This document shows positions 5,028 through 56,951 of a stretch of 64,000 bases of DNA, piece by piece. Every line of letters starts with the position of its first letter. Positions within the stretch are counted from its first letter, which is position 1. The translations under genes and the position numbers were made by a program. The stretch is from Bacteroidales bacterium. GTDB taxonomy: Bacteria; Bacteroidota; Bacteroidia; Bacteroidales; UBA12077. The notes under the pieces are model-generated. The model saw nothing but the letters and a program-made list of their open reading frames with translations, made no database searches and had not been told where the DNA came from. The DNA is taken from NCBI GenBank assembly GCA_028282585.1, contig JANQHR010000028.1, forward strand, positions 13,957 through 77,956. Reading direction: 5' to 3'.

Positions 5028-7757
5028 TTAACTAACAAATTTTTCAACCCGGCATGCTGTCAATTTAAAAGCTGCAATTTTTGAGAACGGATCCAGGTCA
5101 CCTCTTGTTAGCCTGTTTACAGGCGCCTCTGAATAGTGCCAGGGCATAAATAATTCTCCCTCCGCAACCTGATCGCTGGCTTGCAAGGCTGTCACTAGTT
5201 CTCCTTGTTTAGAAGTTAACTTAACTTTATCACCATCAGTTAAATCAAATTTTATAACATCACCGGGATTCATTAAAACATACGATTCATTTGCAAAATC
5301 AGTTAACGATTTATTCCTTCTGGACATTGTTGAAGTATGGTAATGATACAAAATACGTCCACTATTTAATATAAATGGAAACTCTTTTGAAGTTTGTTCA
5401 GATTGAGGAATATACTCAACCGGATTTAAAATTCCCTTTCCATTTGGAGTATTAAACTTTTCCAGGAACAAAGTGCTTGTTCCAGAATGATTCTTGTCAG
5501 GGCATGGCCATTGAATTCCTTGATGTTCAATTCTATCATAAGAAATCCCTGCCATTATAGGTGCAGCTTGTGCAATCTCATCGAATATTTCTGACTCAGT
5601 ATTATAATCTCCCAAACTATACCCCATCTTTTCAGCAATATCAACAATAATTTTCCAGTCATCACGTGCTTCTCCCGGAGATTCGACAGCTTTACGAACC
5701 CGGATAACCCGCCTGTCACTATTTACAAAAGTTCCTTCTTTCTCTGCAAACGAAGCTGCCGGTAAAATTACATCAGCAAAAGGAGTAGTTTCTGTATGGA
5801 AAATATCCTGTATTACCAGAAAATCAAGTTTGTTTAAAGCTTTTTCGGTATGATTCAAATCCGGATCTGTAAGCATGGGATTCTCTCCCATAATATACAT
5901 TCCTTTTATTTTTTCGTCATATGCTGCATTCATTATTTCTACGGTCGTTAATCCTGGTTTACCGGAAAGAGCTTCAAAATCAACACTCCATAACTTAGCT
6001 ATACGTTTCCTGTTTTTTTCATTGGTAATTGGAATATAACCCGGGTAGATTATTGGAGAACAGCCAACATCTGTTGCTCCCTGAACATTGTTTTGCCCTC
6101 GAGGTGGGTCAATTCCGGCTCTCTCCTTACCTATCTGCCCTGTAATCATCATCATATTAATTAACGAGAAGACATTATTTGTTCCGGTTACTTGCTGACT
6201 CAATCCCATACCTGTTGCAATCATTGCAGTTTTTGCCCTAGCATACATTCGTGCAGCTTCTATGATTTTTTCTTTTGGAACAGAAGTAATTTCCTCGGTC
6301 TTTTCAGGTGTATACTTTTCAACCAGTTGCTTTAACTCTTCGTATGCTTCCATTCCCCGATCAACACGTTTTTCAATAAAATCAGGATCGATTAAATCTT
6401 CCTTAATTATTGCATGAATCATTCCATTTAATAAAGCAACATCTGTTCCTAAACGAGGTTGTAACCATATATCTGCATATTTCACCAAAGGTGTCCATTT
6501 AGGGTCGCACACAATTATTTTCTTACCGGCATATTTCCCATTTTTAACATAAGTTGCTGTCACAGGATGTGTTTCAATTATGTTGTTTCCTGTTACGAAT
6601 AAACAATCTGTTGTTGCAAAATCTTCTATTGAATTACTTCCGGCTCCATCTCCAATTGATTTCAGCATAGCTGTTACCGTTGAAGCATGGCAAAGGCGAG
6701 TACAATAATCAATGTTATTGGTTCCAAATACCACACGAATGAATTTTTGGAATAAATAATTATCTTCATTCGTACATTTAGCTGAAGAATATCCCGCTAA
6801 TGCATCATGACCATATTTCTCTTTTATTTCTGTAAATTTAGTAGCTATTAAATCTAAAGCCTCATCCCAGCTTGCCTCAACAAATTTTCCATCCCTCTTG
6901 ATAAGGGGAGTTGTTAGCCTTTCTTTGCTATGAACATAATCGTATCCAAAACGCCCTTTTACACATAACCTTCCATCATTTGGCAATACTCCTTCAACTC
7001 CATCGGAACGTACTATCTTACCATCTTGCACTGTTAACTCAAGTTGGCAACCGACACCACAATAAGGGCAGGTTGTTACAACTTTCTTCTCCAAATTCTC
7101 TAATTGAATTTCATCTCTATGAGGCTTTTCAACCAGAGCTCCTGTAGGGCACAACTGAATACATTCACCACAACCGTCGCATTCTGATTCGTTCCATTGA
7201 TCAAATCCAGCTATGATATAAGATGTTATCCCACGTTCCGAAAAAGATAATACATTCTTTCCTTGTACCTCATCACAACCTTTAATACAACGAAAACACT
7301 TAATACATTTTGATGCATCGTACGTTAAAACCGGTGAGCTGTCGTCAATTTTATAATTCAAAGTTTTGCTTATATTGGGATATTTTCTGTTTTCATGTTT
7401 ATCCAAACCATAATGAATTAACCATTCTCTGAACTCATCATGATATGTTCCATCATAATGATCGTTATGTTCGGCCAGTAAATAATCCAAAATATGTTTA
7501 CGAGTTTCTTCTATTTCCTCATCAAACGCAATTATTTCCATTCCCTCTTTTACACTTACCGTACAAGACATTACTAATCCGTTTGTTCCCTTTATTTTGG
7601 TGACACATAACCTACATGCACCTGTTGGAGTTAACTTTTTATGATAACACAGACTCGGAATTTTAATCCCACTGTCATGAGCCACCTGTAATAAATTTGC
7701 TCCTTCATTGGCCTGGATATTTTTTCCGTCGATTTTAATATTTATTAATCTACTCAT
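5028..7757 (-). CDS. fdhA: Formate dehydrogenase alpha-like molybdo/tungstopterin subunit with NuoG-type N-terminus (module 1, Cys type, lacks the His-ligated 4Fe-4S motif)
   Basis: 909 aa. It has an N-terminal 2Fe-2S motif (C..x..C..C), two CxxCxxCxxxCP ferredoxin motifs and a CPYCGVGC MopB cluster. The active-site sequence is RLCHASTV (Cys-His) and PPRGQNNVQGATD is present. No in-frame TGA was seen. Confidence 0.85.
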   Translation of the reverse strand: MSRLINIKIDGKNIQANEGANLLQVAHDSGIKIPSLCYHKKLTPTGACRLCVTKIKGTNGLVMSCTVSVKEGMEIIAFDEEIEETRKHILDYLLAEHNDHYDGTYHDEFREWLIHYGLDKHENRKYPNISKTLNYKIDDSSPVLTYDASKCIKCFRCIKGCDEVQGKNVLSFSERGITSYIIAGFDQWNESECDGCGECIQLCPTGALVEKPHRDEIQLENLEKKVVTTCPYCGVGCQLELTVQDGKIVRSDGVEGVLPNDGRLCVKGRFGYDYVHSKERLTTPLIKRDGKFVEASWDEALDLIATKFTEIKEKYGHDALAGYSSAKCTNEDNYLFQKFIRVVFGTNNIDYCTRLCHASTVTAMLKSIGDGAGSNSIEDFATTDCLFVTGNNIIETHPVTATYVKNGKYAGKKIIVCDPKWTPLVKYADIWLQPRLGTDVALLNGMIHAIIKEDLIDPDFIEKRVDRGMEAYEELKQLVEKYTPEKTEEITSVPKEKIIEAARMYARAKTAMIATGMGLSQQVTGTNNVFSLINMMMITGQIGKERAGIDPPRGQNNVQGATDVGCSPIIYPGYIPITNEKNRKRIAKLWSVDFEALSGKPGLTTVEIMNAAYDEKIKGMYIMGENPMLTDPDLNHTEKALNKLDFLVIQDIFHTETTPFADVILPAASFAEKEGTFVNSDRRVIRVRKAVESPGEARDDWKIIVDIAEKMGYSLGDYNTESEIFDEIAQAAPIMAGISYDRIEHQGIQWPCPDKNHSGTSTLFLEKFNTPNGKGILNPVEYIPQSEQTSKEFPFILNSGRILYHYHTSTMSRRNKSLTDFANESYVLMNPGDVIKFDLTDGDKVKLTSKQGELVTALQASDQVAEGELFMPWHYSEAPVNRLTRGDLDPFSKIAAFKLTACRVEKFVS

Positions 7758-7762
7758 AACTT

Positions 7763-9004
7763 CTAAAACTCGTTTTCGAAATATTGTTTTAAACTTTTAA
7801 TTGGAAGAATTGGGGATTGCCCTAATGGACATAAAGAGCTTTTTGCCATGAACTCTGATTCATACAAAAGTAAATCCAATGCTTCAACTCTTCCTATTTT
7901 GTTATTCTTTAAATTTTCCATTATATGCAATAATTGGGGCATTCCTATTCTACAAGGCACGCATTTACCGCAGGATTCATGCTTAAAGAATTCCAATATA
8001 GAATTTGTAATATCGAATAGTGATCTGCCTTCGGACATAACCATAATAGCTCCTGAACCCAAAACAGCTCCTTTTTCCTTCAAGGTATCAAATCCCATTG
8101 GGGTATCTAAAACAGATTCATTTACAAAGGTTCCTGCTGCTCCTCCAAGAATAGCCGCATAAAACTTTTTACCATCTTTAATTCCTCCACCTAATTCATA
8201 AATAAGTTGTCTTAGAGTAACTCCCATTTCAACCTCAAAATAACCTGGGTTATTAATATCTCCGCTAATTGTAAATATTTTAGTACCGGGAGAATCTTCA
8301 GTACCCAAGCTCGTATACCATTCAGGTCCGTTATAAATTATCGCAGGTATTGTAGCCAAAGTTTCCACATTATTTATCAAAGTAGGTTTACCATTTAATC
8401 CCTTTTCTGCCGGAAAAGGTGGTTTAATTCTAGGATAACCACGTTTACCTTCAAGTGATTCAAGCAAAGTAAGTTCTTCGCCACAAAGATAGGAGCCAGC
8501 TCCTAATTTTATCTCTACATCAACCGAAAAGGCAGACCCAAAAACATTTTTTCCAATAATTCCTTTTTCCTTGGCTGCAGAAATAGCTTTATTTATACGG
8601 TCGATGGACTTGTAATATTCGCCTCTGATATAAACATAAGCTTTTGATGCACCAATAGCATAAGCTGCGATAAGCATACCTTCAAGCATCAGGTGTGGAT
8701 CGTTTTCCATTATTATCCTGTCTTTAAAAGTACCTGGTTCACCTTCATCAGCATTACAGATTAAGTACTTTTGTTCACAACGAAGACATGCTTCACTAGT
8801 AAACTTTTCTTTTAAACCTGCAGAAAAACCGGCCCCACCTCGGCCACGAAGGCTCGATTTTACCATTTCATCAATAATTTCAATATGATGCAGTCCAACA
8901 GCTTTTTCAAATGCTTTATATCCTCCCTCATTAATGTAATCATCAATGCTTTCAGGATTTATCTTTCCCAGATTTTTAAGGGTTATTCTTTTTTCTTGTA
9001 TCAC
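7763..9004 (-). CDS. NuoF-like NAD(H)/FMN-binding flavoprotein subunit, short form (module 1)
   Basis: 413 aa. Motifs present are RGRGGAGFSAGLK, GEPGTFKDR and a C-terminal ESCGKCVPCR 4Fe-4S motif. There are no extra N- or C-terminal Fe-S domains. Confidence 0.85.
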   Translation of the reverse strand: MIQEKRITLKNLGKINPESIDDYINEGGYKAFEKAVGLHHIEIIDEMVKSSLRGRGGAGFSAGLKEKFTSEACLRCEQKYLICNADEGEPGTFKDRIIMENDPHLMLEGMLIAAYAIGASKAYVYIRGEYYKSIDRINKAISAAKEKGIIGKNVFGSAFSVDVEIKLGAGSYLCGEELTLLESLEGKRGYPRIKPPFPAEKGLNGKPTLINNVETLATIPAIIYNGPEWYTSLGTEDSPGTKIFTISGDINNPGYFEVEMGVTLRQLIYELGGGIKDGKKFYAAILGGAAGTFVNESVLDTPMGFDTLKEKGAVLGSGAIMVMSEGRSLFDITNSILEFFKHESCGKCVPCRIGMPQLLHIMENLKNNKIGRVEALDLLLYESEFMAKSSLCPLGQSPILPIKSLKQYFENEF

Positions 9005-9013
9005 TTTATATAG

Positions 9014-9463
9014 TTAATTATAATTATCGAAAATTGATTTAAAATCTACATTATCCAAATTCCCAACAACATCTTCATTTATCATCATGCCCGGAGCCTC
9101 CTCACATTTTCCAAGACATTCCGATAATTCTAACGTAAATCGCATATCGTCTGTTGTTTCTCCTACTTCAATTGATAAGTTTTTTTTAATTTCTTCAATA
9201 ACCTTAGTAGAATTTTCCATATTACAAACCGGCGAATTACATACTCTAATTATATACTTACCTCTGGGTTTTAAACTAAACATAGTGTAATAAGTTGCTA
9301 CTCCATATATATGACTGTATGTGGTATTCAAGTAACTTGCAGCTATTTTCAAATCTTCTTCGCTTAAATAGTTTTGAGAATTATTGTTCTGCAAAGCATG
9401 TAAAATATTAAGCATATTTTCATGGTCAGGTTTAAATTGTTTTAGAACTTCCGATCTTTCCAT
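9014..9463 (-). CDS. NuoE-like thioredoxin-fold 2Fe-2S subunit (module 1)
   Basis: 149 aa with the Cys pattern CNSPVC ... CLGKCEEAP. It is tightly packed between fdhA2 and the nuoF-like gene. Confidence 0.8.
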   Translation of the reverse strand: MERSEVLKQFKPDHENMLNILHALQNNNSQNYLSEEDLKIAASYLNTTYSHIYGVATYYTMFSLKPRGKYIIRVCNSPVCNMENSTKVIEEIKKNLSIEVGETTDDMRFTLELSECLGKCEEAPGMMINEDVVGNLDNVDFKSIFDNYN

Positions 9464-9471
9464 TATTTCTT

Positions 9472-12162
9472 TTACTTTATGTTATGGTCTGTCTTTTCAA
9501 TCTTTATTGCACATACTTTTGTCTCAGGTATTTTAGATACCGGATCAATTGCACATATGGTTAATTCATTTGTTGGTGTCTCATGAAAATGAAAGGTTAA
9601 TGATACTACACCTTTAGGACAAATTTCAGTAATATTTGTTTTTACTCTTACTGCTCCCCTTCGCGATTTTACAGTTACTAGTTCCTCATTTTTTAGATTC
9701 AGTTTGTCAGCATCTCTAGGATTAATTAAAAGAAGTTCCTCTTCATTCAATAATTCAAGTCCTTTTACTCGTCTTGACATGGTAGACGTATGAAAATGAT
9801 AAAGGCTTCTATCTGTAGTTAGAATTAGAGGATATTCTTTGTCTGGCAGCTCTGCGGAAGCCTTATATGAAATAGGGAAAAATCGTCCTTTCCCACCGGG
9901 TCTTGAGAATTTGTCCTTATGAAGGAACTTTGTTCCCGGGTGATTTTTATCTAAGCAAGGCCACTGTAATCCCAATTCTTCAATTCTATTATACTTTATT
10001 CCTCCATAAATTGGAGCTACTTCATTAATCTCATCCATTATTTCCTCTGCAGAATTAAATTCAAAACCGGTTGCTCCTAATTTTTTAGCAATCCCACAAG
10101 TTATCTGCCAATCGTCTCGCGCTTCTCCCGGTGGATCAACTAATTTTCTTACTCTCTGAACTCTTCTTTCGGTATTGGTAAAAGTACCTTCTTTTTCCGC
10201 AAAAGATGTAGCCGGTAGAATAACATCGGCATATTTAGCGGTTTCCGTAAAAAAGATATCCTGAACTACAAAAAAATCAAGTTTATCAAGTACTTTCTTC
10301 ACATGATTAGCATCTGCTTCGCTTAACACCGGATTTTCACCCACCTGGTATAACGATTTTATTTGTCCTTTTTCTATCTGATCAAATATTTCGGTATGAG
10401 TTAATCCAATATCGGCATTTAACTCAACATCCCAATATTTTTCAAATTTCTCTTGTATTTCCGGAACAGTTACTTTTTGATATCCAGGATATACATTTGG
10501 TAAGGCTCCCATGTCACATGCTCCCTGGACATTATTTTGTCCTCTTAAAGGATTTACTCCTGATGATTCTTTTCCCACACTACCGGTAAGTTGAGCCAGA
10601 TTACTTATTGCTAAAACATTATCGGTACCATGTGAATGTTGTGTGATTCCCATAGCGAATATTAATGACGATGGTTTGTTAGTTGCATACAATCTGGCAG
10701 CTTCGACAATCTTTTCTTTAGGAACTCTGGTTATTTTTTCGCATGTATCAAGGTCAAATTTATTCAGCGACTCAATAAAATCATCATAATCTTCACATCT
10801 GTTTTTTATAAACCCGGAATCTTCAAGTTTTTCATCTACAATAACTTTCATCATTCCCATAAGCAATACTACATCTGTACCTGGTAACTGTTGTAAATGA
10901 ATATCAGCAAATCGGCAAAGGTCAATTTCTTTAGGATTAGCAACAATGATTTTCGCACCACGCCTCTTAGCTTCTTTGATATGTAATCCGATTATTGGAT
11001 GAGCAGCAGTGGTATTTGAACCAATCGAAAAAATAGTAGCTGCATTTGTAAATTCATCAATTGAATTGGTCATAGCTCCGCTGCCAAAACTTTGCACTAG
11101 TCCTGCAACAGTAGGTGCATGACATAAACGAGCACAATGGTCAACCGTATTTGTACCCATTACCGCTCTGGTAAATTTCTGAATTACATAATTATCTTCG
11201 TTTGGTACTTTAGCTGATGATAAAGTAGCAAATTTATCTCCTTTCGAACTTGCAAACTTTTTAGCAACTAAATCCAATGCTTCTTCCCAATCTGCTTCTG
11301 TAAACTCTCCGTTTTTCTTTATAAGTGGTTTGGTGAGCCGTTCCGGATGGTTAACAAAGTTGAACCCAAAGCGTCCTTTTACACAAAGCCTTCCCTTATT
11401 AACAATGCTATCTCTATCGCCTCTTGCACTTACTAATTTATTATCCCGAATACCGAAGTATATATTACAGCCTACACCACAATATACGCAAACTGATTTA
11501 ACTTCGCGTGTTGGTAATTTTTCATCTTTGGGATATAAAGCACCAACCGGACACCTAACAACGCATTCTCCGCATGATTCACAAACCGATTCTTTAATTG
11601 ATCGATTTCCAAAAGTACTTACCACTGTCTCAAATCCCCTGTAACCATAGTCCAATGCATTTGTTCCTTGAACTTCATTACATGTTCGTATACAGATACC
11701 GCACGTAATGCATTTATTATGGTCAAGCGTAAAAAAAGGATTGGATTCATCTTTTTCAATAAGAGGTTTTGTACGCCGCAAACTATTCAATCTTTTTTCA
11801 TTAACGCCTACATATGCCGTTACCTCCTGTAATTTACATTGATTATTATTATGACAATTTGTACAATCTTGTATATGGTTTGAGTGAATTAATTCAAGAG
11901 TTGTTTGTCTGATCAATGATATATCCTGGCTTTCTGTCCTTATAATCATATTATCCTCAACGGGAGTTTTGCAAGCAATAATTTGCCCCCGCCTACCCTC
12001 AACTTCAACCATACACATTCTGCAATTACCTGTTGGAATAAGGTCCGGATGATGGCAAAGGTTTGGAATATAAATACCATTCTCTGTTGCAACATCAAGA
12101 ATAGTTTTTCCGCTTTTTGCAATTAAATTTAAGCCATCGATTATTACGTTAACCTTTTCCAC
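9472..12162 (-). CDS. fdhA: Formate dehydrogenase alpha-like subunit with a complete NuoG-type N-terminus (module 2, Cys type)
   Basis: 896 aa. It has a 2Fe-2S motif and an intact H-x3-C-x2-C-x5-C motif (HIQDCTNCHNNNQC). It also has two ferredoxin motifs, CVYCGVGC, the active site RLCHAPTV and PLRGQNNVQGACD. Confidence 0.85.
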   Translation of the reverse strand: MEKVNVIIDGLNLIAKSGKTILDVATENGIYIPNLCHHPDLIPTGNCRMCMVEVEGRRGQIIACKTPVEDNMIIRTESQDISLIRQTTLELIHSNHIQDCTNCHNNNQCKLQEVTAYVGVNEKRLNSLRRTKPLIEKDESNPFFTLDHNKCITCGICIRTCNEVQGTNALDYGYRGFETVVSTFGNRSIKESVCESCGECVVRCPVGALYPKDEKLPTREVKSVCVYCGVGCNIYFGIRDNKLVSARGDRDSIVNKGRLCVKGRFGFNFVNHPERLTKPLIKKNGEFTEADWEEALDLVAKKFASSKGDKFATLSSAKVPNEDNYVIQKFTRAVMGTNTVDHCARLCHAPTVAGLVQSFGSGAMTNSIDEFTNAATIFSIGSNTTAAHPIIGLHIKEAKRRGAKIIVANPKEIDLCRFADIHLQQLPGTDVVLLMGMMKVIVDEKLEDSGFIKNRCEDYDDFIESLNKFDLDTCEKITRVPKEKIVEAARLYATNKPSSLIFAMGITQHSHGTDNVLAISNLAQLTGSVGKESSGVNPLRGQNNVQGACDMGALPNVYPGYQKVTVPEIQEKFEKYWDVELNADIGLTHTEIFDQIEKGQIKSLYQVGENPVLSEADANHVKKVLDKLDFFVVQDIFFTETAKYADVILPATSFAEKEGTFTNTERRVQRVRKLVDPPGEARDDWQITCGIAKKLGATGFEFNSAEEIMDEINEVAPIYGGIKYNRIEELGLQWPCLDKNHPGTKFLHKDKFSRPGGKGRFFPISYKASAELPDKEYPLILTTDRSLYHFHTSTMSRRVKGLELLNEEELLLINPRDADKLNLKNEELVTVKSRRGAVRVKTNITEICPKGVVSLTFHFHETPTNELTICAIDPVSKIPETKVCAIKIEKTDHNIK

Positions 12163-12164
12163 AA

Positions 12165-14048
12165 TTAATCCTCCGCAATTTTATTTCCGGGATAAACCTC
12201 AATTGCACTAAATTTATCAGGGCATTTATCCATACACATTCCACATTTTATACATAGCGATTGGTCTATTTTATGCAGCTTTTTTGGATAACCGCTGATT
12301 GCAGAAACCGGGCATACCTTAAAACAAATATGGCAACCCGTACACTTATCAGGTAAAATATCGTAATAAATAAGATCCTTGCAAACTTTAGACGGGCATC
12401 TCTTATTTTGAATATGTTCTATATATTCATCCTTAAAATATTGAATCGTTGTTAACAGAGGATTAGGAGCAGTTTGCCCTAAACCACACAAAGATCCATT
12501 TTTGATACCTTTTCCTAAATCCTCCAACAAGTCCAAATCTTCCATTGTTCCTTTACCTGAAACAATGTCTTCCAATATATCAAGCATTTGTTTGGTTCCT
12601 AACCTACATGGAGTGCATTCCCCACAAGATTCTTTATGCGCAAAATCAATAAAATATTTTGCCACATCCACCATACAATTTTCTTCATCCATCACAACCA
12701 AACCTCCGGATCCCATAATGGTTCCAGCCTCTGTCAGAGATTCATAGTCAACTTTTAAATCTATCATGCTAGCTGGCACACAACCTCCCGAAGGACCACC
12801 TGTTTGTATAGCTTTCAGTTTTTTATCTGCACTTACACCTCCGCCAATTTCATAAATAATTTCCTTTAATGAAATTCCCAAAGGCACCTCAATCAAACCT
12901 GTATTTTTTACTTTTCCGACCAATGCAAATGTTTTGGTTCCCTTACTTTTTTCTGTACCAAATTTTGAGAACCAACCAGGTTCATTTTGCAAAATTCTGG
13001 CAACAGATGCTAAAGTCTCAACATTATTAATAATAGTGGGTTTACCCCATAAGCCTGATACTGCAGGAAATGGCGGCCTGGGGCGTGGCATTCCTCTTTT
13101 CCCCTCAATTGAAGCAATAAGAGCCGTTTCTTCACCACAAACAAAAGCTCCCGCTCCTTCTTTTATTTCAATTTTAAAGTCAAATCCCGAACTAAGTATA
13201 TTTTCACCTAATAAATTATTTTGCTCTGCTTGAGAAATTGCCTGTCTTAATCTTTCAAGTGCTAAAGGATATTCTGCCCTGCAATATATATATCCGGTAT
13301 TTGCTCCAATTGCATATGCTGCGATAATCATACCTTCAATTAACGAATGAGGATCTCCTTCAATCAACGACCTATTCATAAAAGCACCAGGATCTCCTTC
13401 ATCGGCATTACAAATTAAATATTTAGCATCGTTTTGCTGATCCTTACAAAACTGCCATTTCTTCCAGGTTGGAAAGCCAGCGCCACCTCTTCCTCTTAAC
13501 CCGGATTCTTTAATCCTTTCAATTACCTCTTGTGAAGAAAGTTGAAAGGCTTCTTGTAAACCACTATATCCTTTTTTGGCCAGATAATGGTTTAAATTAG
13601 TTGGGTCAATTATTCCGCAGTTTTTGAGCACTAATCTTTCTTGTGGCTTTAAAACAGAGGTTTCCCATATGCCATTCAAATTATCTAATTTAGTATCACC
13701 AAGCGTTCCAATAATATTTTCATTTACAATTTCATTATTAATTAAATATGCATCAATTAGTTTTTCAGCATCATTTTCACTCACTTTACCATAAACAAAG
13801 TGTGGGTTACCAGGATTATAGATACTTACAATCGGTTCCAGATAACACATACCAATGCACCCAACTTCAATAACTTTGCACTCAATATTTTTTGATGAAA
13901 TCTTTGAGCTCAGCTTTTCTATTAAGGATGAAGCGCCAGCCGACCTTCCACAAGTGGCATTACCAACCAAAATTGCCGGCACAGAACCATTTACTAAATC
14001 GTTCCATTCTGCTATCGCTTCTTTTTTTAATGAAATAAAATCCATCAT
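12165..14048 (-). CDS. NuoF/HydB-like flavoprotein subunit, long form with N-terminal 2Fe-2S thioredoxin-like domain and C-terminal 2x[4Fe-4S] ferredoxin domain (module 2)
   Basis: 627 aa. The N-terminus carries TCGRSAGA...GCIGMCYLEP. The core carries RGRGGAGFPTWKK, GDPGAFMNR and ESCGECTPCR. The C-terminus carries CTGCHICFKVCP and CIKCGMCMDKCP. Confidence 0.85.
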   Translation of the reverse strand: MMDFISLKKEAIAEWNDLVNGSVPAILVGNATCGRSAGASSLIEKLSSKISSKNIECKVIEVGCIGMCYLEPIVSIYNPGNPHFVYGKVSENDAEKLIDAYLINNEIVNENIIGTLGDTKLDNLNGIWETSVLKPQERLVLKNCGIIDPTNLNHYLAKKGYSGLQEAFQLSSQEVIERIKESGLRGRGGAGFPTWKKWQFCKDQQNDAKYLICNADEGDPGAFMNRSLIEGDPHSLIEGMIIAAYAIGANTGYIYCRAEYPLALERLRQAISQAEQNNLLGENILSSGFDFKIEIKEGAGAFVCGEETALIASIEGKRGMPRPRPPFPAVSGLWGKPTIINNVETLASVARILQNEPGWFSKFGTEKSKGTKTFALVGKVKNTGLIEVPLGISLKEIIYEIGGGVSADKKLKAIQTGGPSGGCVPASMIDLKVDYESLTEAGTIMGSGGLVVMDEENCMVDVAKYFIDFAHKESCGECTPCRLGTKQMLDILEDIVSGKGTMEDLDLLEDLGKGIKNGSLCGLGQTAPNPLLTTIQYFKDEYIEHIQNKRCPSKVCKDLIYYDILPDKCTGCHICFKVCPVSAISGYPKKLHKIDQSLCIKCGMCMDKCPDKFSAIEVYPGNKIAED

Positions 14049-14506
14049 TATTTTTTATCCTTTGATATAGAAAATATTTTCTCCACCTTCTTTGGTGTTA
14101 GATTTGCTTCTACAGTATCATTAACCATTGCACATGGAGCAAGGCTGCATGCGCCAATGCAGGCGACATTTTCAAGTGAATATTTTAAATCTTCAGATGT
14201 TTCTCCTACCTTAATTCCAATTTGATTTTCAACCTCTTCCTGGATACGTGTAGCACCTTTAACATGACAAGCTGTTCCCCTGCACAACATAATATGTCTT
14301 TCTCCTTTTGGTGTAAACCTGAATTGAGTATAAAAAGTTGCTACTCCATAAACCATACTAGCAGGAATCCGAATAAACCGGGATATTTCTTCCATAGATT
14401 CATCGGATAAAAATCCCAAATTTTCCTGTACTTTTTGAAGTAACGGTATTAGTTCCTCTTCCTTACCCTCGAATGAAGAAAATGTTTCTTTCAACTTTTC
14501 ATTCAT
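14048..14506 (-). CDS. NuoE-like 2Fe-2S subunit (module 2)
   Basis: 152 aa with the Cys pattern CRGTAC ... CIGACSLAP. Its stop overlaps the next start as TAATG at 14046-14050, which suggests translational coupling. Confidence 0.8.
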   Translation of the reverse strand: MNEKLKETFSSFEGKEEELIPLLQKVQENLGFLSDESMEEISRFIRIPASMVYGVATFYTQFRFTPKGERHIMLCRGTACHVKGATRIQEEVENQIGIKVGETSEDLKYSLENVACIGACSLAPCAMVNDTVEANLTPKKVEKIFSISKDKK

Positions 14507-14663
14507 AAAAAAGTATTTAGGTATTTATATCTGATAAATTTAAACTAAGTATCGAAATATATCAATATATGAGATTAATATAGACTGATTTTAATTTATA
14601 TTAAACTAATTGAACACTTAGTTATATTTAGTGTTATAGCACTATATTCTAAATAATAAAATT

Positions 14664-14852
14664 ATGCCTATTATAGAATTACTTATTTTATCAATCGTTT
14701 TATTATTCATTGCTGTGTTAGCTTTATCGGTACGGTTAATTTTTACAAAAAAAGGAGAATTTAGAGGCGGTTCTTGTAAAAGCCGTCCAAATGAATTAAA
14801 AACGGAAGGAGTCGGTTGTGGTTGCGGTAGTGGTTGTGAAACAGTAAATTAA
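14664..14852 (+). CDS. Small single-TM protein with four C-terminal cysteines (NqrM/DUF539-like or FeoB-associated Cys-rich type)
   Basis: 62 aa. A hydrophobic helix is followed by KKGEFRGGSC-x13-CGCGSGC, i.e. a GSC...CxCxxxC pattern. The two small-protein families cannot be told apart by eye. Confidence 0.45.
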   Translation: MPIIELLILSIVLLFIAVLALSVRLIFTKKGEFRGGSCKSRPNELKTEGVGCGCGSGCETVN

Positions 14853-22449: not shown

Positions 22450-24819
22450 TTATTCATATTTAAGAATGGTTGCAGGATTAGCTCTAGATGCTTTTAAAGA
22501 TTGATATAATACTGATATCTGGGCAATAAACATAACAAGGATTCCTGCTAATAAAAAAACGTAGTAATCAAGTCCTGTTCTGTAAGAAAAATTCTGCAGC
22601 CATTTATCCAAATAAAAATATGCAAATGGCCAGGCTATTATCATCGAAACTATTACCCATTTTGTAAATTCCCATGTTAGCATTCTTGTAATTGTTTGAC
22701 TGGAAGCTCCGTGGGCTTTTCTTATTCCTATTTCTTTTGTTCTTCTTTCTGTCATATATGATGCTAACCCAAACAACCCTAAACAGGATAGAAATATGGC
22801 TATTGCGGCAAAAATTCCAAAAAGGCTACCTAACTTTTGTTCAGACTTATAAAGTTTATCATATTCTTCATTCAAAAACTTAAAATCCATAGGAAATTCA
22901 CCATTAAACTGATTCCATACTTCATTAATTTCCTTAATTGTCTTTTGTATTTCTGTACCATCAATTTTTATGAATATATAACCATATACATTTTTATTTA
23001 ATGCAAGTACTAATGGTTCAACAGGTCTGTGTAAGGATTTAAAATTAAAATCTTTCATAATTCCAATTATGTATCCCTTTGTATCCCAGAATTCAAACCA
23101 TTTACCAATTGGCTCTTTAAGTTTCATTTGTTTTATTGCAGTTTCATTTAAAATAAAATTAGAAGAATCGGCAGGCCTGCTAAGATCGAAGTTTCTGCCT
23201 TCGATAAGATTTATATCAAAAGTTTGAACATATTCATGATCTGCAAAATACCAGTGAATTAGAACATGATCTTCTTCAGATTGTGTAGTATCCCTATCTT
23301 CCCAATCAATTCCTGTTGTAGAATTAACTGTATAAGTTGGAATATTATTTGAATAAGTAACATTACTTACACCGCTTAGATTTTTTAATTCGGTTTTTAA
23401 TGAAAAATAGTTATCATATAAATCACCTCTTATAGATGTATAAAGAATCTGTTCTTTATTAATTCCCAAATTTCTTTTTTGTATATAATTAAGTTGTTTG
23501 TAAACGAAAAAAGTTCCAATAATTAAGGCAATAGATAAAGTAAATTGAAATATAACAAGTACTTTTCTAAAAATCGATGATCCTGATTGAACATCTCCTT
23601 TTAGCACATTAACAGGGATAAAAGAAGATAAATAAAATGCCGGGTAACTGCCTGCCAATAATCCCGTGAATAATAGAATTAATAATAAGCCGTATAAAAA
23701 TTGACCGTTTGAATAATTAACTTCTAAAGCTTTACCGGTAAACTGATTTATATAAGGTAATAGTAACTCAACACTTATTATTGCTAAAAAATAGGAAATA
23801 ATGGTCAATATTAATGATTCTCCAATAAATTGAAATATTAACTGTCGCCGTGAAGCACCTGAAACTTTTCTAATTCCTACTTCGCGAGCCCTTCTGGTTG
23901 CCCGGGCTGTTGAAAGATTCATGTAGTTAATAACGACAATCAGTATAATTATTAAACCAACAACAGAAAAAAGATAAACATATTGATATTGTATTTCGGT
24001 ATGTGAATATACATCAATATTAAAATCAGATTTTAAATGTATCTCACTTAATGGCTGTAAATAGTAAGTTTGATTAATCTCATAATCGTAAACCTCTTGT
24101 GCACTTTCCGTAAACTTACTATTCATACTTTTATAATCTGTATTATTATCAAATAGTACATATGCATAATAATAGTTATTGTTCCAACTAATATTCCATC
24201 CAATTTCTTCCAATCTTTTAAATGGAACTAAAGCATTGAATTGTAAATGAGAATTTGACGGCACATCTTCAACAACACCAACTACAGTATAAATGCTTGA
24301 TTGGTTTATCATTATATCTTTTCCTATTGGATTTTCCTGCCCAAAGCATTTTCTCGCAAATGATTCTGTAATAAGCATACTGGTGGTTAACTCCTTAAAT
24401 TGTTCAAGAGATCCTTCTTTAATCCTAAAACTGAAAATATCAAAAAACTCCGGATCGACATAACCGTATCCGTCATCATAAAACTTTTTATCACCGCACG
24501 TAAACAATAGCTTACTTGTATATGGCCTAAATCTTGCCGATTTTAAAATTTCCGGAAACTCTTCATCAAACTTTTTTACCATTGGTGCCGGAGTTGCAGC
24601 AACTTTAAACTCACCATCGGTATGTTGTTGAGCTTGTACTAACCTATATATGGATTCATAATTTTCATGGAATTTATCATAATTAAGTTCATCTAAAATC
24701 CATAAATAGATAATCACCGAACATGCTAAGCCCGTTGCTAAGCCTAAAATATTTATTACCGTGTATCCCTTATACCGAATTAAAAACCGATATGCTATAA
24801 GTAAATAATTCCTTAACAT
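22450..24819 (-). CDS. MacB/FtsX-type ABC transporter permease, double-module (paralog 1); no ATPase gene adjacent
   Basis: 789 aa. It starts MLRNYLLIAYRFLIRYKGYTVINILGLA. It contains two units of 4 TM plus a large extracytoplasmic domain, and the C-terminus is ANPA..LKYE. Confidence 0.8.
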   Translation of the reverse strand: MLRNYLLIAYRFLIRYKGYTVINILGLATGLACSVIIYLWILDELNYDKFHENYESIYRLVQAQQHTDGEFKVAATPAPMVKKFDEEFPEILKSARFRPYTSKLLFTCGDKKFYDDGYGYVDPEFFDIFSFRIKEGSLEQFKELTTSMLITESFARKCFGQENPIGKDIMINQSSIYTVVGVVEDVPSNSHLQFNALVPFKRLEEIGWNISWNNNYYYAYVLFDNNTDYKSMNSKFTESAQEVYDYEINQTYYLQPLSEIHLKSDFNIDVYSHTEIQYQYVYLFSVVGLIIILIVVINYMNLSTARATRRAREVGIRKVSGASRRQLIFQFIGESLILTIISYFLAIISVELLLPYINQFTGKALEVNYSNGQFLYGLLLILLFTGLLAGSYPAFYLSSFIPVNVLKGDVQSGSSIFRKVLVIFQFTLSIALIIGTFFVYKQLNYIQKRNLGINKEQILYTSIRGDLYDNYFSLKTELKNLSGVSNVTYSNNIPTYTVNSTTGIDWEDRDTTQSEEDHVLIHWYFADHEYVQTFDINLIEGRNFDLSRPADSSNFILNETAIKQMKLKEPIGKWFEFWDTKGYIIGIMKDFNFKSLHRPVEPLVLALNKNVYGYIFIKIDGTEIQKTIKEINEVWNQFNGEFPMDFKFLNEEYDKLYKSEQKLGSLFGIFAAIAIFLSCLGLFGLASYMTERRTKEIGIRKAHGASSQTITRMLTWEFTKWVIVSMIIAWPFAYFYLDKWLQNFSYRTGLDYYVFLLAGILVMFIAQISVLYQSLKASRANPATILKYE

Positions 24820-24852
24820 AATTTATCAAATTTAATATTTACTACTAATAGT

Positions 24853-24866
24853 CCAAAAAGATGCCA
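24853..24866 (-). promoter_or_regulatory. Candidate promoter element TGGCATCTTTTTGG, starting exactly 47 nt upstream of the permease-1 ATG
   Basis: It has the same TGGCATC heptamer and the same 47-nt offset as the element upstream of permease 2. It could be a degenerate sigma-54 -24/-12 element, or it may overlap a -33 TTTG of a sigmaA-type promoter whose -7 box is TAAATTTG. Confidence 0.35.
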
Positions 24867-24919
24867 AATAAAAAAAAGTCTCATATTCAATATTTTATAA
24901 AAATTATACTTTGTACATT

Positions 24920-24959
24920 TGTAACATAATGTTACATTAAAGTGTAACAATACATTACA
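24920..24959. promoter_or_regulatory. Two tandem 17-bp palindromes TGTAAC-N5-GTTACA / TGTAAC-N5-ATTACA; candidate response-regulator (EBP) operators
   Basis: Site 1 is at 24920-24936 and is perfect. Site 2 is at 24943-24959 with one mismatch. Their centres are 23 bp apart, in the divergent spacer between permease 1 and RR1. Confidence 0.55.
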
Positions 24960-24962
24960 TTT

Positions 24963-26321
24963 ATGGTAGAAAATAAACTATTGATAATTGATGATGATCA
25001 ACAATTACTTGATACACTTTCATTAGTACTAAAATATGAGTTTGAAAAAATCAATACTATTAAAAATCCAAATCTGGTTCCGGAAATAATTAAAAAAGAA
25101 CGATTTGATGTTGTTTTATTAGATATGAATTTTTCGGCTGGTAAAACAACTGGAAATGAAGGGTTATTTTGGTTAAGAAAGATTAAAGAATTTGATCCCG
25201 AAGCTACGGTTGTTATGATTTCTGCTTATGCAACCATTGATTTAGCAATAGAAATAATGAAAGAAGGTGCTGTGGATTTCATTTTGAAACCCTGGGAAAA
25301 TCAAAAGTTAATTGCCACCCTTAAGTCTGCATGTAAGCTAAGTAAAACTAGGGATGAATTAGCGAAAAGTGAAGCTCTAAATACCTCAATTAATAATGAC
25401 CTGGAAAGCGAACTCTCTTTAATGGACAGCAGTTCTCCGAAAATGCAAAAAGTACTTGATACAATTAAAATTGTTGCGCCAACAGAAGCGAATGTATTAA
25501 TATTAGGAGAAAACGGAACCGGAAAAGAAGTCATTGCACGAGAAATCCATCGTAACTCATTGCGCAAAAACAAATATTTAGTGCAAGTTGATCTTGGTTC
25601 AATATCCGAAAGTTTATTTGAAAGTGAATTGTTCGGACACGTAAAAGGAGCTTTTACAGGTGCAATAGCAAATAAATTAGGCAGGTTTGAAATTGCCAGT
25701 GAAAGTACATTATTTTTAGATGAAATAGGAAACATTTCCATTACGCATCAAGGTAAGCTATTATCGGCAATACAAAATAAAGAATTTTACCCGGTAGGAA
25801 GTGAAAGAATTGTAGAATCTAATGTGCGTATAATCTGTGCAACAAATAAAAACCTGGAGTTATTGGTTGAAGAAAATAATTTTCGTGAAGATTTACTTTA
25901 TAGAATAAATACAATTCAATTAGAAATACCACCATTAAGAGATCGAAAAGAAGATATTAGAAAACTTGCAGAATTTTTCCTTAATCGATTCAACGATAAA
26001 TACAACAAACATTGCCGGCTGCAGAAAAGTACAATCAAATATATTGAATCTTATGATTGGCCGGGAAATATCAGAGAATTAAAACATACAATTGAAAGAG
26101 CTGTGATTCTGGCAAACAAAGATCAACTTATAATAGATCAGATTGGTTCTGTAAAGCATGGAACTGAGATGAAAGCTGAACGTAAAACCTGGAATGAAAT
26201 CGAGAAATTTTATTTAAGGAAAACTTTTAATAAATATCATGGAAATATATCTGAAATTGCACGTGAATTAAATCTTTCGCGTCCATCCATATATCGTAAA
26301 ATCAAAAAACATGGTTTATAA
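24963..26321 (+). CDS. Sigma-54-dependent response regulator (NtrC family: REC + AAA+ + HTH), paralog 1
   Basis: 452 aa. It has a REC domain (DD..D..LDMNF), a Walker A motif GENGTGKE, a GAFTGA loop, ESELFGH and a C-terminal HTH. Confidence 0.9.
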   Translation: MVENKLLIIDDDQQLLDTLSLVLKYEFEKINTIKNPNLVPEIIKKERFDVVLLDMNFSAGKTTGNEGLFWLRKIKEFDPEATVVMISAYATIDLAIEIMKEGAVDFILKPWENQKLIATLKSACKLSKTRDELAKSEALNTSINNDLESELSLMDSSSPKMQKVLDTIKIVAPTEANVLILGENGTGKEVIAREIHRNSLRKNKYLVQVDLGSISESLFESELFGHVKGAFTGAIANKLGRFEIASESTLFLDEIGNISITHQGKLLSAIQNKEFYPVGSERIVESNVRIICATNKNLELLVEENNFREDLLYRINTIQLEIPPLRDRKEDIRKLAEFFLNRFNDKYNKHCRLQKSTIKYIESYDWPGNIRELKHTIERAVILANKDQLIIDQIGSVKHGTEMKAERKTWNEIEKFYLRKTFNKYHGNISEIARELNLSRPSIYRKIKKHGL

Positions 26322-35158: not shown

Positions 35159-35165
35159 TTTCTAA

Positions 35166-36536: not shown

Positions 36537-36593
36537 TTCTTTTTGTATTAGTACATCAAAAATATTGTAGTTTAGTAATAGTTCAAAATTTGC

Positions 36594-36610
36594 TGTAGCA
36601 AAATGCTACA
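36594..36610. promoter_or_regulatory. Perfect 17-bp palindrome TGTAGC-N5-GCTACA (plus an extra GCTACA half-site at 36627-36632); candidate operator of RR2
   Basis: The geometry matches the TGTAAC-N5-GTTACA sites of module 1, with one base changed per half-site. It lies in the divergent RR2/permease-2 spacer. Confidence 0.55.
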
Positions 36611-36696
36611 CTTAGATAATCGAATTGCTACATTTAACTCTTAAATGAAAACACTTAATTCTCATAAAATTCTATTATTCAATTTATTATACTTTA

Positions 36697-36711
36697 TGGC
36701 ATCACTATTGG
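36697..36711 (+). promoter_or_regulatory. Candidate promoter element TGGCATCACTATTGG, starting exactly 47 nt upstream of the permease-2 ATG
   Basis: The spacing is canonical for sigma-54 (GG-N10-G), but the -12 reads TTGG rather than TTGC. Alternatively it overlaps the -33 region of a sigmaA-type promoter with a -7-like TAAATTTT. Confidence 0.35.
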
Positions 36712-36743
36712 TTAATAGTTTCAAAACCATTAAATTTTAATTT

Positions 36744-56858: not shown

Positions 56859-56951
56859 TTTTTTGCTTTTTACGTATAAAATTTTACCGGTTATCAAATT
56901 AAACGAAAAAAACTAGATTAGGTTATTATTTTTTAACTAAAAAATCACAAC

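Follow-up and report, generated by a model that had tools for sequence, protein, structure and literature searches.

Formate dehydrogenases (FDHs) built on the NuoE/NuoF/NuoG-FdhH plan have been described in several forms. FdsGBA(D), the NAD+-dependent Mo-FDH of Rhodobacter capsulatus and Cupriavidus necator (6TG9, 6VW7), connects bis-MGD to FMN, and in RcFDH a His-ligated cluster lies off the electron pathway at the dimer interface. FDH1 of Methylorubrum (Methylobacterium) extorquens AM1 (MeFDH1/FoDH1; 7VW6, 7E5Z) is a tungsten-containing, NAD+-dependent alpha-beta heterodimer in which, according to the structure reports, the His-ligated cluster is absent. Other formate-linked enzymes use the BfuBC core known from the NfnABC structures (9BOV, 9N5U/9N5V). 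HylABC-FdhF2 of Gottschalkia acidurici and Hyt-Fdh of Clostridium autoethanogenum, which are W/Se enzymes and one of which also has a hydrogenase, couple formate/CO2 to NAD(P) plus ferredoxin via BfuBC, with the pterin site on an additional subunit (Type 2/3). A Type 1 Fdh-Bfu, predicted for Carboxydothermus hydrogenoformans, has the pterin domain fused to BfuA and the gene order C-B-A (Schut et al. 2022); its layout is a prediction, and we found no assayed or solved Type 1 enzyme in the literature searched. Fdh-Bfu genes were reported in Firmicutes, Proteobacteria and Chloroflexi and not in Bacteroidetes (Schut et al. 2022).

We describe here the directly observed gene structure, domains, ligands, signatures, closest relatives, distribution and co-divergence of an operon from an uncultured marine Bacteroidales bacterium. 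Six minus-strand ORFs are arranged back to back in the order E2-F2-A2-E1-F1-A1 within the window (the whole stretch of 64,000 nucleotides analysed; Table 1). Module 2 (E2-F2-A2) and module 1 (E1-F1-A1) each encode a NuoE-like subunit (PF01257), a NuoF-like flavoprotein (PF01512 and PF10589) and a catalytic subunit with a NuoG N-terminus and molybdopterin domains (PF13510, PF22117, PF04879, PF00384 and PF01568). The ORF coordinates place gaps of -1, 2, 8, 9 and 5 nt along the operon, the modules being separated by the 8 nt between A2 and E1, and the ORF listing reproduces the order, lengths and gaps given in the original prediction. Co-transcription of all six genes is plausible, judging from this tight spacing. 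There is a sole sizeable non-coding stretch 5′ of the operon, presumably the promoter region; a scan with the sigma-70 consensus, which does not cover Bacteroidota promoter types, returned only chance-level matches. In pairwise alignments the paralogs of the two modules are 44% (A), 45% (F) and 32% (E) identical, and the pairs are old. Our favored reading is that the operon probably specifies two distinct complexes with different redox partners, each a soluble, cytoplasmic FDH or CO2 reductase of the Cys type with Mo/W-bis-MGD.

Table 1. Coordinates of the genes and sequence features of the tandem operon within the window.
Feature	Coordinates	Strand	Remarks
5′ non-coding region upstream of E2, presumed operon promoter region	14507..14663	-	inferred
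E2, BfuC/NuoE-like subunit of module 2	14048..14506	-	152 aa; PF01257 E=6.5e-49
F2, BfuB-type flavoprotein of module 2	12165..14048	-	627 aa; Pfam and end-to-end BfuB alignments
Site B5 of F2, the thioredoxin-like domain at its N-terminus (residues 1-135)	13644..14048	-	weak PF01257 match
F2 full B2 hinge motif, H545-x5-C551-x4-C556	12381-12416	-	His545 just beyond 12168..12413
C-terminal part of F2 (residues 546-627), with B3, B4 and the greater part of the B2 (Zn) hinge	12168..12413	-	
A2, catalytic subunit of module 2	9472..12162	-	896 aa; Pfam including PF10588, FdhH residues
A2 His-ligated cluster motif, H96-x3-C-x2-C-x5-C	11836-11877	-	
E1, NuoE-like subunit of module 1	9014..9463	-	149 aa; PF01257 E=1.3e-44
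F1, core-only NuoF-type flavoprotein of module 1	7763..9004	-	413 aa; Pfam
A1, catalytic subunit of module 1	5028..7757	-	909 aa; Pfam, top PDB match MeFDH1 alpha
A1 degenerate segment replacing the His-ligated cluster, EHNDHYDGTYHDEFRE	7425-7472	-	

Both A1 and A2 have the sequence characteristics of metal-dependent FDHs. They match PF00384, PF01568 and PF04879 with E-values from 1e-17 to 1e-86, and each is 40–42% identical to E. coli FdhH. Alignment with FdhH shows that the four Cys of the proximal cluster (C225/228/232/260 in A2, C230/233/237/265 in A1), Lys44 (K262, K267), His141 (H348, H357) and Arg333 (R540, R553) are all kept, with Cys at the position of Sec140 (C347, C356). Both also have the RGQNNVQG context that marks FDHs, and the conserved FdhH residues and the top PDB matches, which are FDH catalytic subunits, support their original designation as true formate dehydrogenases. 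Their description as Cys-type likewise holds, as the Cys of RLCHA is specified by TGT and TGC codons and there is no in-frame stop in either gene. Members of the molybdopterin family readily switch substrate, and with A1 and A2 only 44% identical the two could be paralogs that use different substrates, one of them not being a formate dehydrogenase. This is very improbable, however, given that both retain the Cys-His dyad, the equivalents of Arg333 and Lys44 and the RGQNNVQG context, that both show the same level of identity to FdhH with top PDB matches that are all FDHs, and that the neighbors of the operon in relatives are a formate-THF ligase gene and a MobA-like gene.

The catalytic subunits differ in their N-terminal regions. 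In A2, a NuoG-like N-terminus with predicted [2Fe-2S], His-ligated [4Fe-4S] and 2x[4Fe-4S] clusters is followed by the FdhH-like Mo/W-bis-MGD domain, whereas the predicted cofactors of A1 are a [2Fe-2S], 2x[4Fe-4S], the proximal [4Fe-4S] and Mo/W-bis-MGD. A1 has no PF10588 match, and in alignment with A2 a degenerate segment is present in place of the H-x3-C-x2-C-x5-C motif. The motif is missing from A1 and from 10/10 aligned orthologs, with the other ligands kept. The absence of this cluster from A1 had been overlooked in the initial reading of the sequence. The modules had been characterized there as 'rich' and 'stripped' in Fe-S domains, which is correct for the flavoproteins, F1 having none of the extra domains, but is incomplete in that the Fe-S loss extends to A1.

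The F2 flavoprotein consists of an N-terminal B5 domain, an FMN/NADH core, the B1 cluster, the B2 hinge and a B3/B4 ferredoxin domain, and its whole length aligns with Csac NfnB (9BOV, 761 bits), Tsi NfnB (9N5U, 760 bits), NiFe-HydB (7T2R, 748 bits) and StnB (8OH5, 744 bits). Scores against solved bifurcating B subunits span 713–761 bits, compared with 375–436 for FdsB and Nqo1. The two CX2CX2CX3CP motifs of B3/B4 (residues 569-580 and 599-610) align to five solved BfuB chains, and ferredoxin has been seen bound beside B3/B4 in structure 9N5V; this ferredoxin-facing domain (residues 546-627) is absent from F1. The B2 ligands, EENC458 together with H-x5-C-x4-C, have the same spacing as C438 and H525/C531/C536 of NiFe-HydB, and Schut et al. 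(2022) reported only 8 of 1558 BfuB sequences to lack the B2 His. The B5 domain, which matches PF01257 weakly, has a three-Cys pattern (C33, C64, C68) with a single Cys in the first motif as in NfnB and StnB, where HydB and NiFe-HydB have C-x4-C; the occupant of B5 is Zn in Csac NfnB and a [2Fe-2S] in others. The B1-FMN-C1 site, with PF01512, PF10589 and an SCGECTPC motif in F2 and four Cys in E2, is non-discriminating, being common to non-bifurcating homologs. Losey et al. identified A/E-x-M, Phe and GGPSG as signatures of bifurcating beta subunits, and by these criteria F2 is of the bifurcating type (PGAFM / GAGAF / GGPSG). The four Cys for the [2Fe-2S] cluster C1 are present in E2 (C75, C80, C116, C120), whose best PDB matches are Bfu C subunits (NfnC 157 bits, NiFe-HydC 154), compared with ~101 bits for the complex I 24 kDa subunit and 85–99 for FdsG.

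Apart from site B5, where only three Cys are present, every sequence test run places module 2 in the BfuABC family, and it would be of the Type 1 Fdh-Bfu kind. It has the C-B-A gene order, the pterin domain fused to BfuA beside the proximal cluster, and a BfuB with FMN, B1, the B2 hinge, B3/B4 and the N-terminal domain. The reaction proposed for it is that of HylABC-FdhF2 and Hyt-Fdh, from which it differs in having three subunits and a Cys where those enzymes have Sec; L014, a relative at 64% identity, is Sec-type. Electrons from formate would enter at the pterin and travel within A2 along the proximal [4Fe-4S], the two ferredoxin-type [4Fe-4S] clusters and the [2Fe-2S]. At the B1-FMN-C1 site of F2/E2 one branch would then lead to NAD+, at the FMN, and the other through C1 to B3/B4 and ferredoxin. 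Run backwards, the enzyme would reduce CO2 with NADH and reduced ferredoxin together. Bifurcation is thus a prediction from family membership.

Conceivably, neither complex couples to ferredoxin. They would then be two ordinary NAD(P)-linked isoenzymes of FDH, distinguished by metal (W or Mo), kinetics, direction or oxygen tolerance, and the additional domains of F2 would be structural or regulatory remnants. Some trimeric hydrogenases first annotated as bifurcating proved to be NADH-only, vestigial cluster branches are known in the Bfu family (e.g. A4/A5 of Csac NfnA), and the literature searched yielded no characterized Type 1 Fdh-Bfu. We nonetheless consider this improbable, as the NADH-only hydrogenases lack precisely those domains and signatures that F2 has, and the B2, B3 and B4 ligands are all intact. 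The F2 orthologs retain ferredoxin-domain Pfam matches and keep the bifurcating signatures with two single-position deviations, GGISG in L003 and AFQ in L009, which argues for function rather than decay.

Module 1 tests negative by all of these Bfu comparisons and appears to be of the plain NAD-linked type. F1 contains the FMN/NADH core and one [4Fe-4S], beginning at the NuoF core and stopping where PF10589 ends; sites B2, B3, B4 and B5 were not found in it, and Ser occupies the first B2 ligand position. The two C-terminal Fer4 motifs and the weak N-terminal thioredoxin-like match are confined to the 627-aa protein in Pfam searches, in agreement with the flavoprotein contrast drawn originally. 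The F1 signatures (PGTFK / GAGSY / GGAAG) correspond to the non-bifurcating pattern of Losey et al., and the best 120 F1 family clusters listed are 410–422 aa long with the same signatures, apart from one truncated entry, and like F1 they have no B2–B5 sites. Among 150 representatives, none of the 36 sequences bearing the F1-type signature also has a ferredoxin domain. In a crude neighbor-joining tree of these 150 sequences, built without bootstrap, F1 falls in a ferredoxin-domain-free clade alongside NuoE-NuoF fusions, and its nearest relatives in the representative library are two uncharacterized fusions of that kind (P0121 and P0122, 54% identity). We also considered F1 as a truncated copy of F2 and rejected this, as the tree puts F1 in a separate lineage without the ferredoxin domain. 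The best PDB matches of F1 are still Bfu B subunits (446 bits, versus 376 for Nqo1). E1 has four Cys for a [2Fe-2S] cluster (C75, C80, C116, C120), and its PDB matches are weaker and less discriminating than those of E2 (Bfu C subunits 93–111 bits, complex I 24 kDa subunit 89). The contrast between F2 and F1 in extra Fe-S domains and in the three residue signatures repeats the dichotomy between HydABC and Hyd1ABC of S. wolfei or HydAB of S. aciditrophicus, with a pterin here in place of the H-cluster of the [FeFe]-hydrogenase catalytic module.

MeFDH1 is the closest described counterpart of module 1. Its alpha subunit (7VW6) is the top PDB match of A1 (686 bits) and similarly lacks the H-x3-C-x2-C-x5-C motif, and the two share the same predicted cofactors (bis-MGD, three [4Fe-4S], one [2Fe-2S] and no His-ligated dimer-interface cluster) as well as a diaphorase of NuoE-like and core NuoF-like parts with no FdsB N-terminal domain, ferredoxin domain or FdsD. 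They differ in gene structure: 9 nt separate the ORFs of E1 and F1, but in MeFDH1 both parts are fused in the beta subunit, which F1 matches only weakly (264 bits). They also differ in their hosts, an anaerobic Bacteroidales bacterium and an aerobic methylotroph. The earlier assignment of module 1 to the FdsGBA type does not hold, although the overall subunit logic and the bis-MGD-to-FMN path are the same. F1 has no FdsB N-terminal domain, and FdsB is farther than the Bfu B subunits from both F1 and F2. The operon contains no FdsD gene, and the gaps of ≤9 nt between its genes leave no room for an extra ORF. The dimer-interface His-ligated cluster of FdsA is kept in A2 and not in A1.

Module 1 can thus be viewed as a putative MeFDH1-type enzyme with unfused diaphorase subunits and the same predicted pterin-to-FMN wire as module 2. 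With no ferredoxin exit and no dimer-bridging cluster, it would simply interconvert formate/CO2 and NAD+/NADH. The T-x-K/Tyr pattern of F1, common to non-bifurcating NADH-dependent enzymes, provides an indirect hint that NAD+ is the sole acceptor, presumably in preference to NADP+. Module 2 would add ferredoxin coupling, such that formate could be made from, or oxidized to, variable NADH:ferredoxin ratios, whichever direction prevails physiologically. The cluster ligands, Losey signatures, closest structures and tree placement are all in accord with the original pairing of a potentially bifurcating NAD+/ferredoxin FDH with a plain NAD-linked one. Each module is of a known enzyme kind, and the tandem arrangement is previously undescribed; no report of bifurcating and NADH-only types in tandem in one operon was found in the literature searched.

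Of the 13 loci examined, 8 have module 2 directly upstream of module 1, and these fall into two different genomic contexts. The full six-gene order is present in the independent assemblies L003, L009, L015 and L020, which rules out an assembly artefact or a chance arrangement, and L001, L004 and L007 show it as far as their contigs reach. Module 1 occurs alone in L005, L010, L011, L012 and L019, and module 2 alone in L013 and L014. The identities of A1 and A2 orthologs correlate (r = 0.82), and the tandem is old and conserved in relatives, with module 2 apparently inherited vertically. On a bootstrapped tree the pattern of presence and absence needs at least three state changes, suggesting three or more losses of module 2 from loci that retained module 1. 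Across a large Bacteroidota clade, module 1 is apparently the resident FDH and module 2 its dispensable partner.

The modules have remained neighbors through deep divergence, with their order and tight spacing preserved, which counts against fully independent enzymes and raises the alternative that they form one coupled system, either a physical supercomplex or a formate/CO2 loop. In the loop, module 2 would act as a confurcating CO2 reductase and module 1 would re-oxidize the formate, with the net conversion of reduced ferredoxin and NAD+ to oxidized ferredoxin and NADH; the pair would then serve as a soluble redox valve connecting the pools of ferredoxin and NAD. The stoichiometry balances on paper by our own reasoning, the order of the genes is conserved, as is their close spacing (8 nt between the modules), and the modules co-diverge and are kept in tandem in two unrelated contexts. 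We regard coupling as unlikely, however. An obligate joint function is hard to reconcile with the loci that have one module only, and module 2 appears to have been repeatedly lost with module 1 retained. A1 is conserved to a similar level with or without module 2, and a 162-nt spacer separates the modules in L020. The protomer-bridging cluster of RcFDH has no counterpart in A1, which closes that route for electron exchange with A2, and a loop would also waste the low potential of ferredoxin. Modules 1 and 2 are therefore most likely two autonomous enzymes, to judge from these comparisons.

The pair had also been proposed to act as a switch or short-circuit supplying the AORs 25 kb away, and nothing in these comparisons supports this. 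The AOR genes are real, but no linkage between AOR genes and the operon is present in any relative examined. Their occurrence within the window, as members of a tungstoenzyme family, is an indirect hint that tungsten occupies the active site of module 1.

Six open reading frames on the minus strand lie exactly where the original prediction had placed them and form two modules, each consisting of a NuoE-like protein (E), a NuoF-like flavoprotein (F) and a catalytic formate dehydrogenase (FDH) subunit (A), with module 2 (E2-F2-A2) at the 5′ end and module 1 (E1-F1-A1) at the 3′ end (see table). ORF coordinates and junction sequences give gaps of -1, 2, 8, 9 and 5 nt, and this spacing alone suggests that the six genes are co-transcribed. 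Fer4 motifs and the thioredoxin-like match are exclusive to F2 among the six proteins. In pairwise alignments the paralogs are 32% (E1/E2), 45% (F1/F2) and 44% (A1/A2) identical, indicating that the module duplication is ancient.

Features of the window, with coordinates and strand
Feature	Coordinates	Strand	Description
A1	5028-7757	-	909 aa, NuoG-N-terminus + molybdopterin (Pfam); PF10588 absent
F1	7763-9004	-	413 aa, NuoF-like (Pfam)
E1	9014-9463	-	149 aa, NuoE-like (Pfam)
A2	9472-12162	-	896 aa, NuoG-N-terminus + molybdopterin (Pfam)
F2	12165-14048	-	627 aa, NuoF-like; C-terminal Fer4 motifs + weak N-terminal thioredoxin-like match (Pfam)
E2	14048-14506	-	152 aa, NuoE-like (Pfam)
62-aa ORF	14664-14852	+	N-terminal transmembrane helix, Cys-rich tail (CGCGSGC), no Pfam match
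Mirror-image set	22450-27645		MacB/FtsX-type permease, sigma-54-dependent response regulator, histidine kinase
Mirror-image set	33809-39155		MacB/FtsX-type permease, sigma-54-dependent response regulator, histidine kinase
AOR-family gene	39207-41360	-	one of two paralogs (717 and 718 aa), AFOR_N + AFOR_C
Further AOR-cassette gene	41965-42543	-	ThiF-family / DUF364 set
AOR-family gene	42587-44743	-	one of two paralogs (717 and 718 aa), AFOR_N + AFOR_C
Further AOR-cassette gene	44962-45663	+	ThiF-family / DUF364 set
Further AOR-cassette gene	45785-46372	+	ThiF-family / DUF364 set
PorP/SprF gene	49226-50230		adjoins giant ORFs
Giant ORF	50358-56897	-	2179 aa; type IX secretion sorting domain (CHU_C, Por_Secre_tail); many PKD repeats
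Giant ORF	56952-63023	+	2023 aa; type IX secretion sorting domain (CHU_C, Por_Secre_tail)

Scans for promoters and terminators returned counts at chance level (42 against 42.2 expected, and 6 against 6.1 expected), and because the promoter tool has no model of Bacteroidota promoters these scans are silent on transcript structure. Two RNA queries made gene by gene gave no match, and the only sequencing runs containing the sequence are of DNA, from a coral metagenome study. The window comes from an uncultured Bacteroidales lineage: its best genome match is a Bacteroidales MAG (94% identity in F1), and it carries T9SS genes. Some tandem loci in other assemblies have spacers much longer than in the window, the A2-E1 spacer being 162 nt in L020 (8390-8553) and the F1-A1 spacer 158 nt in L015 (15283-15441); these leave room for internal promoters, such that transcript structure may differ between lineages.

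By sequence, both catalytic subunits are FDHs, as had been proposed. When aligned to Escherichia coli FdhH taken from the K-12 genome (40-42% identity), A1 and A2 keep the four proximal [4Fe-4S] cysteines, Lys44, His141 and Arg333, the position of Sec140 is occupied by Cys347 in A2 (TGT) and Cys356 in A1 (TGC), and the top PDB matches of both are all FDH catalytic subunits. That one of the paralogs acts on a substrate other than formate is unlikely, as the active site is conserved in both. In L014, a module 2 relative with 64% identity, an in-frame TGA stands exactly at the Cys347 position (HCARL*HSPTV), so that the catalytic gene (10897-13572) is called as two ORFs and this lineage uses selenocysteine. 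A2 contains the His-ligated cluster motif H96-x3-C-x2-C-x5-C, kept in 4/4 A2 orthologs covering that region, and by alignment and Pfam its counterpart in A1 is the Cys-free EHNDHYDGTYHDEFRE, the motif being missing in 10/10 aligned A1 orthologs. The absence of a PF10588 match in A1 had escaped the original prediction.

Module 2 is a member of the electron-bifurcating BfuABC (Bfu) family by every sequence test available. F2 matches end to end the NfnB proteins of C. saccharolyticus (9BOV, 761 bits) and T. sibiricus (9N5U, 760 bits), NiFe-HydB (748 bits), StnB (744) and HydB (714), whereas FdsB and Nqo1 score just 375-436 bits, and among PDB matches E2 is clearly nearest to Bfu C subunits. Structural work on Bfu enzymes places the bifurcation site at B1-FMN-C1 (B1-B5 and C1 being metal sites of BfuB and BfuC), with B3/B4 at the C-terminus forming a low-potential exit next to which ferredoxin has been seen bound, a Zn hinge at B2, and either [2Fe-2S] or Zn at the N-terminal B5. 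F2 contains both CX2CX2CX3CP motifs, a B2 pattern (EENC...H-x5-C-x4-C) with spacing identical to H525/C531/C536 of NiFe-HydB, and three cysteines at B5, as in NfnB and StnB. Of the three residue signatures that tell bifurcating from NADH-only beta subunits (Losey et al.), F2 has A-F-M, Phe and GGPSG. Module 2 shares the C-B-A order and the pterin domain fused to BfuA with the Type 1 Fdh-Bfu enzymes, a class predicted from genomes such as that of Carboxydothermus hydrogenoformans (Schut et al.). We found no reported assay or purification of any Type 1 Fdh-Bfu in the open-access literature, and module 2 could possibly be NAD-only despite its domains, against which stands the conservation of its ligands and signatures across orthologs, apart from one deviating signature position each in L003 and L009.

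Module 1 is not of the Bfu type and by sequence matches the Methylorubrum extorquens FDH1 (MeFDH1) type. F1 spans the NuoF core to the end of the B1 domain with nothing beyond, the first B2 cysteine of F2 aligns with a serine in F1, and its signatures (T-F-K, Tyr, GGAAG) follow the non-bifurcating pattern. The best 120 clusters listed for the F1 family are all from Bacteroidota where named and 410-422 aa long in all but one truncated entry, with Tyr in 120/120, GGPSG in 0/120 and T-x-K in 119/120 (the motif expression was unmatched in the remaining one). Among 1.84 billion representatives, the closest proteins that are not orthologs of F1 are NuoE-NuoF fusions without a ferredoxin domain, at 54% identity. 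A neighbor-joining tree of the shared core, crude and without bootstrap, places F1 in a clade made only of proteins lacking the ferredoxin domain and F2 nested among proteins bearing the two-cluster domain, and the signatures agree with this placement of F1. Among 150 representatives the non-bifurcating signature and the ferredoxin domain never occur together, the domain being absent in 36/36 proteins with that signature. We therefore reject an origin of F1 by truncation of F2, given its 45% identity, its non-bifurcating signatures and its position with the NuoE-NuoF fusions in a domain-free clade, and the description of module 1 as stripped does not stand if taken as derivation from module 2.

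The top PDB match of A1 is the MeFDH1 alpha subunit (686 bits), from which the His-ligated cluster motif is also missing. The MeFDH1 structure is an alpha-beta heterodimer in which alpha carries three [4Fe-4S] clusters and one [2Fe-2S] and lacks the dimer-interface cluster of Rhodobacter capsulatus FDH (RcFDH), and beta corresponds to FdsG plus FdsB minus the FdsB N-terminal domain. In RcFDH the His/Cys3 cluster lies at the FdsA-FdsA interface, off the path from bis-MGD to FMN; the main wire of A1 should thus stay intact, and a wire broken by loss of this cluster is rejected, as the cluster is also absent from the active MeFDH1. The assignment of the minimal NuoEF pair to NAD-linked enzymes is upheld, although its type is that of MeFDH1 rather than FdsGBA, as the cluster and the FdsB N-terminal domain are both absent. 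The core of the original prediction, a potentially bifurcating FDH beside a plain NAD-linked FDH, is supported by the closest solved structures, the cluster ligands, the residue signatures and the tree placement.

These features are consistent with two autonomous soluble enzymes. In module 2, formate would be oxidised at a Cys-ligated Mo/W-bis-MGD, and electrons would pass from the proximal cluster of A2 through two ferredoxin-type clusters and [2Fe-2S] to B1-FMN-C1, where one share would go to NAD+ and the other, via B3/B4, to ferredoxin; run backwards, the enzyme would reduce CO2 to formate with NADH and reduced ferredoxin. Module 1 would use the same wire ending solely at FMN/NAD(H). A cell with both modules could make or use formate at whatever NADH:ferredoxin ratio prevails, and lineages with module 1 only would have formate tied to NAD alone, possibly feeding an Na+-NQR encoded nearby in relatives. 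Flux direction, metal, NAD versus NADP specificity and bifurcation are inferred, and no dependable sequence rule separating NAD from NADP specificity was found.

Among the window and the loci from other assemblies compared with it (L001-L020), the tandem is present in 8/13 with a readable upstream side, a biased sample (the window, L001, L003, L004, L007, L009, L015 and L020), and module 1 is alone in the other five (L005, L010, L011, L012 and L019); module 2 is alone in L013 and L014. A metagenome-contig scan with back-translated F1 patterns, which were too specific, recovered two distant loci only and gives no unbiased tandem frequency, and 12 further pairs of F1-type and F2-type matches sharing an equal-sized longest contig hint that more tandems exist. 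The operon occurs in two contexts. In the first (RND efflux genes, FDH, proline dehydrogenase, ApbE/Nqr), E1-F1-A1 is alone on three long contigs and E2-F2-A2 lies directly upstream in L009 and the window; in the second (formate-tetrahydrofolate ligase, MobA-like gene, FDH, GH2), module 1 is alone in L019 and six genes are present in L015 and L020. The MobA-like nucleotidyltransferase gene is upstream of the operon in L015, L019 and L020 and the ligase gene in L015 and L019, neither being present in the window, and the ligase gene adjoins the lone module 2 of L013; these neighbors are in keeping with synthesis of the bis-MGD cofactor and with formate metabolism.

A bootstrapped neighbor-joining tree of F1 and A1 has three places where module-1-only loci nest among tandem ones: L010 joins the window and L003 (98%), L011 and L012 pair (100%) within a 100% clade also containing tandem loci, and L019 shares a 100% clade with three loci that carry the tandem. 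The simplest history suggested by these sequences is an ancestral six-gene operon in a Bacteroidota clade followed by at least three deletions of the 5′ module, with module 1 kept throughout. Recent insertion of module 2 by transfer is not favored, as A1 and A2 pairwise identities across six tandem loci are correlated (r = 0.82, computed on non-independent pairs) with the same sister pairs, and the tandem is present in both deep subclades and two genomic contexts. Older inter-phylum transfer is likely, since MAGs labelled as Deltaproteobacteria and as Anaerolineales contain F2-type genes (64-71% identity). In comparisons of the window with L001-L012, A1 is by far the most conserved module 1 protein, with 85-92% identity to the window within the main subclade, against 70-77% for F1 and 56-72% for E1.

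The lasting adjacency of the modules would be accounted for if they acted jointly, co-expressed at a fixed ratio as a hetero-supercomplex or as a formate/CO2 loop between the ferredoxin and NAD pools, such that the order of Bfu-type first and NAD-type second would not be mere inherited adjacency; no membrane complex would be needed, and the two FDHs would make up a soluble redox valve of a kind not recognised before. We consider this improbable given that module 2 has been lost repeatedly, each module is also found alone, and A1 lacks the protomer-bridging cluster, and we favor two autonomous enzymes; the proposed switch or short-circuit is speculation.

Each module belongs to a known kind of enzyme and no new mechanism is revealed, and in the open-access literature we found no prior description of a tandem of bifurcating-type and NAD-type FDHs or of an Fdh-Bfu in Bacteroidota. 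No three-subunit FDH of Bfu layout is known to have been purified, which makes module 2 a candidate with which the predicted class could first be tested biochemically. The operon's chief interest is as a matched pair for learning what makes a NuoEF-type module bifurcate: it supplies a natural control, a predicted NAD-only FDH that shares chemistry, cell and probably transcript unit with module 2, and the modules differ at the features thought to decide bifurcation (ferredoxin domain, Zn hinge and three residue signatures), such that these rules could be tested directly by comparing the two or exchanging their B subunits. The results point to NAD as the route for formate in many marine and sediment Bacteroidota, with coupling to ferredoxin as a further option in a subset of them, which bears on models of interspecies formate transfer and fermenter redox balance.

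The aldehyde:ferredoxin oxidoreductase (AOR) genes suggested as partners of the operon are real and lie at 39-45 kb, but in none of the relatives examined does an AOR occur within ~10 kb of the operon; nothing connects these genes to the operon, and a functional link is speculation. The AOR region looks from its gene content like a duplicated tungstoenzyme cassette, each AOR gene having a short ThiF-family gene nearby, with a DUF364 (putative heavy-metal chelation) gene between them. Between the two mirror-image sets lie genes for a GAF protein, a metallo-beta-lactamase-fold protein and a TonB-dependent receptor. The two giant ORFs are divergently oriented. A 61-63-aa gene occupies a place equivalent to that of the 62-aa ORF, on the opposite strand beside the FDH operon, in L009-L012.
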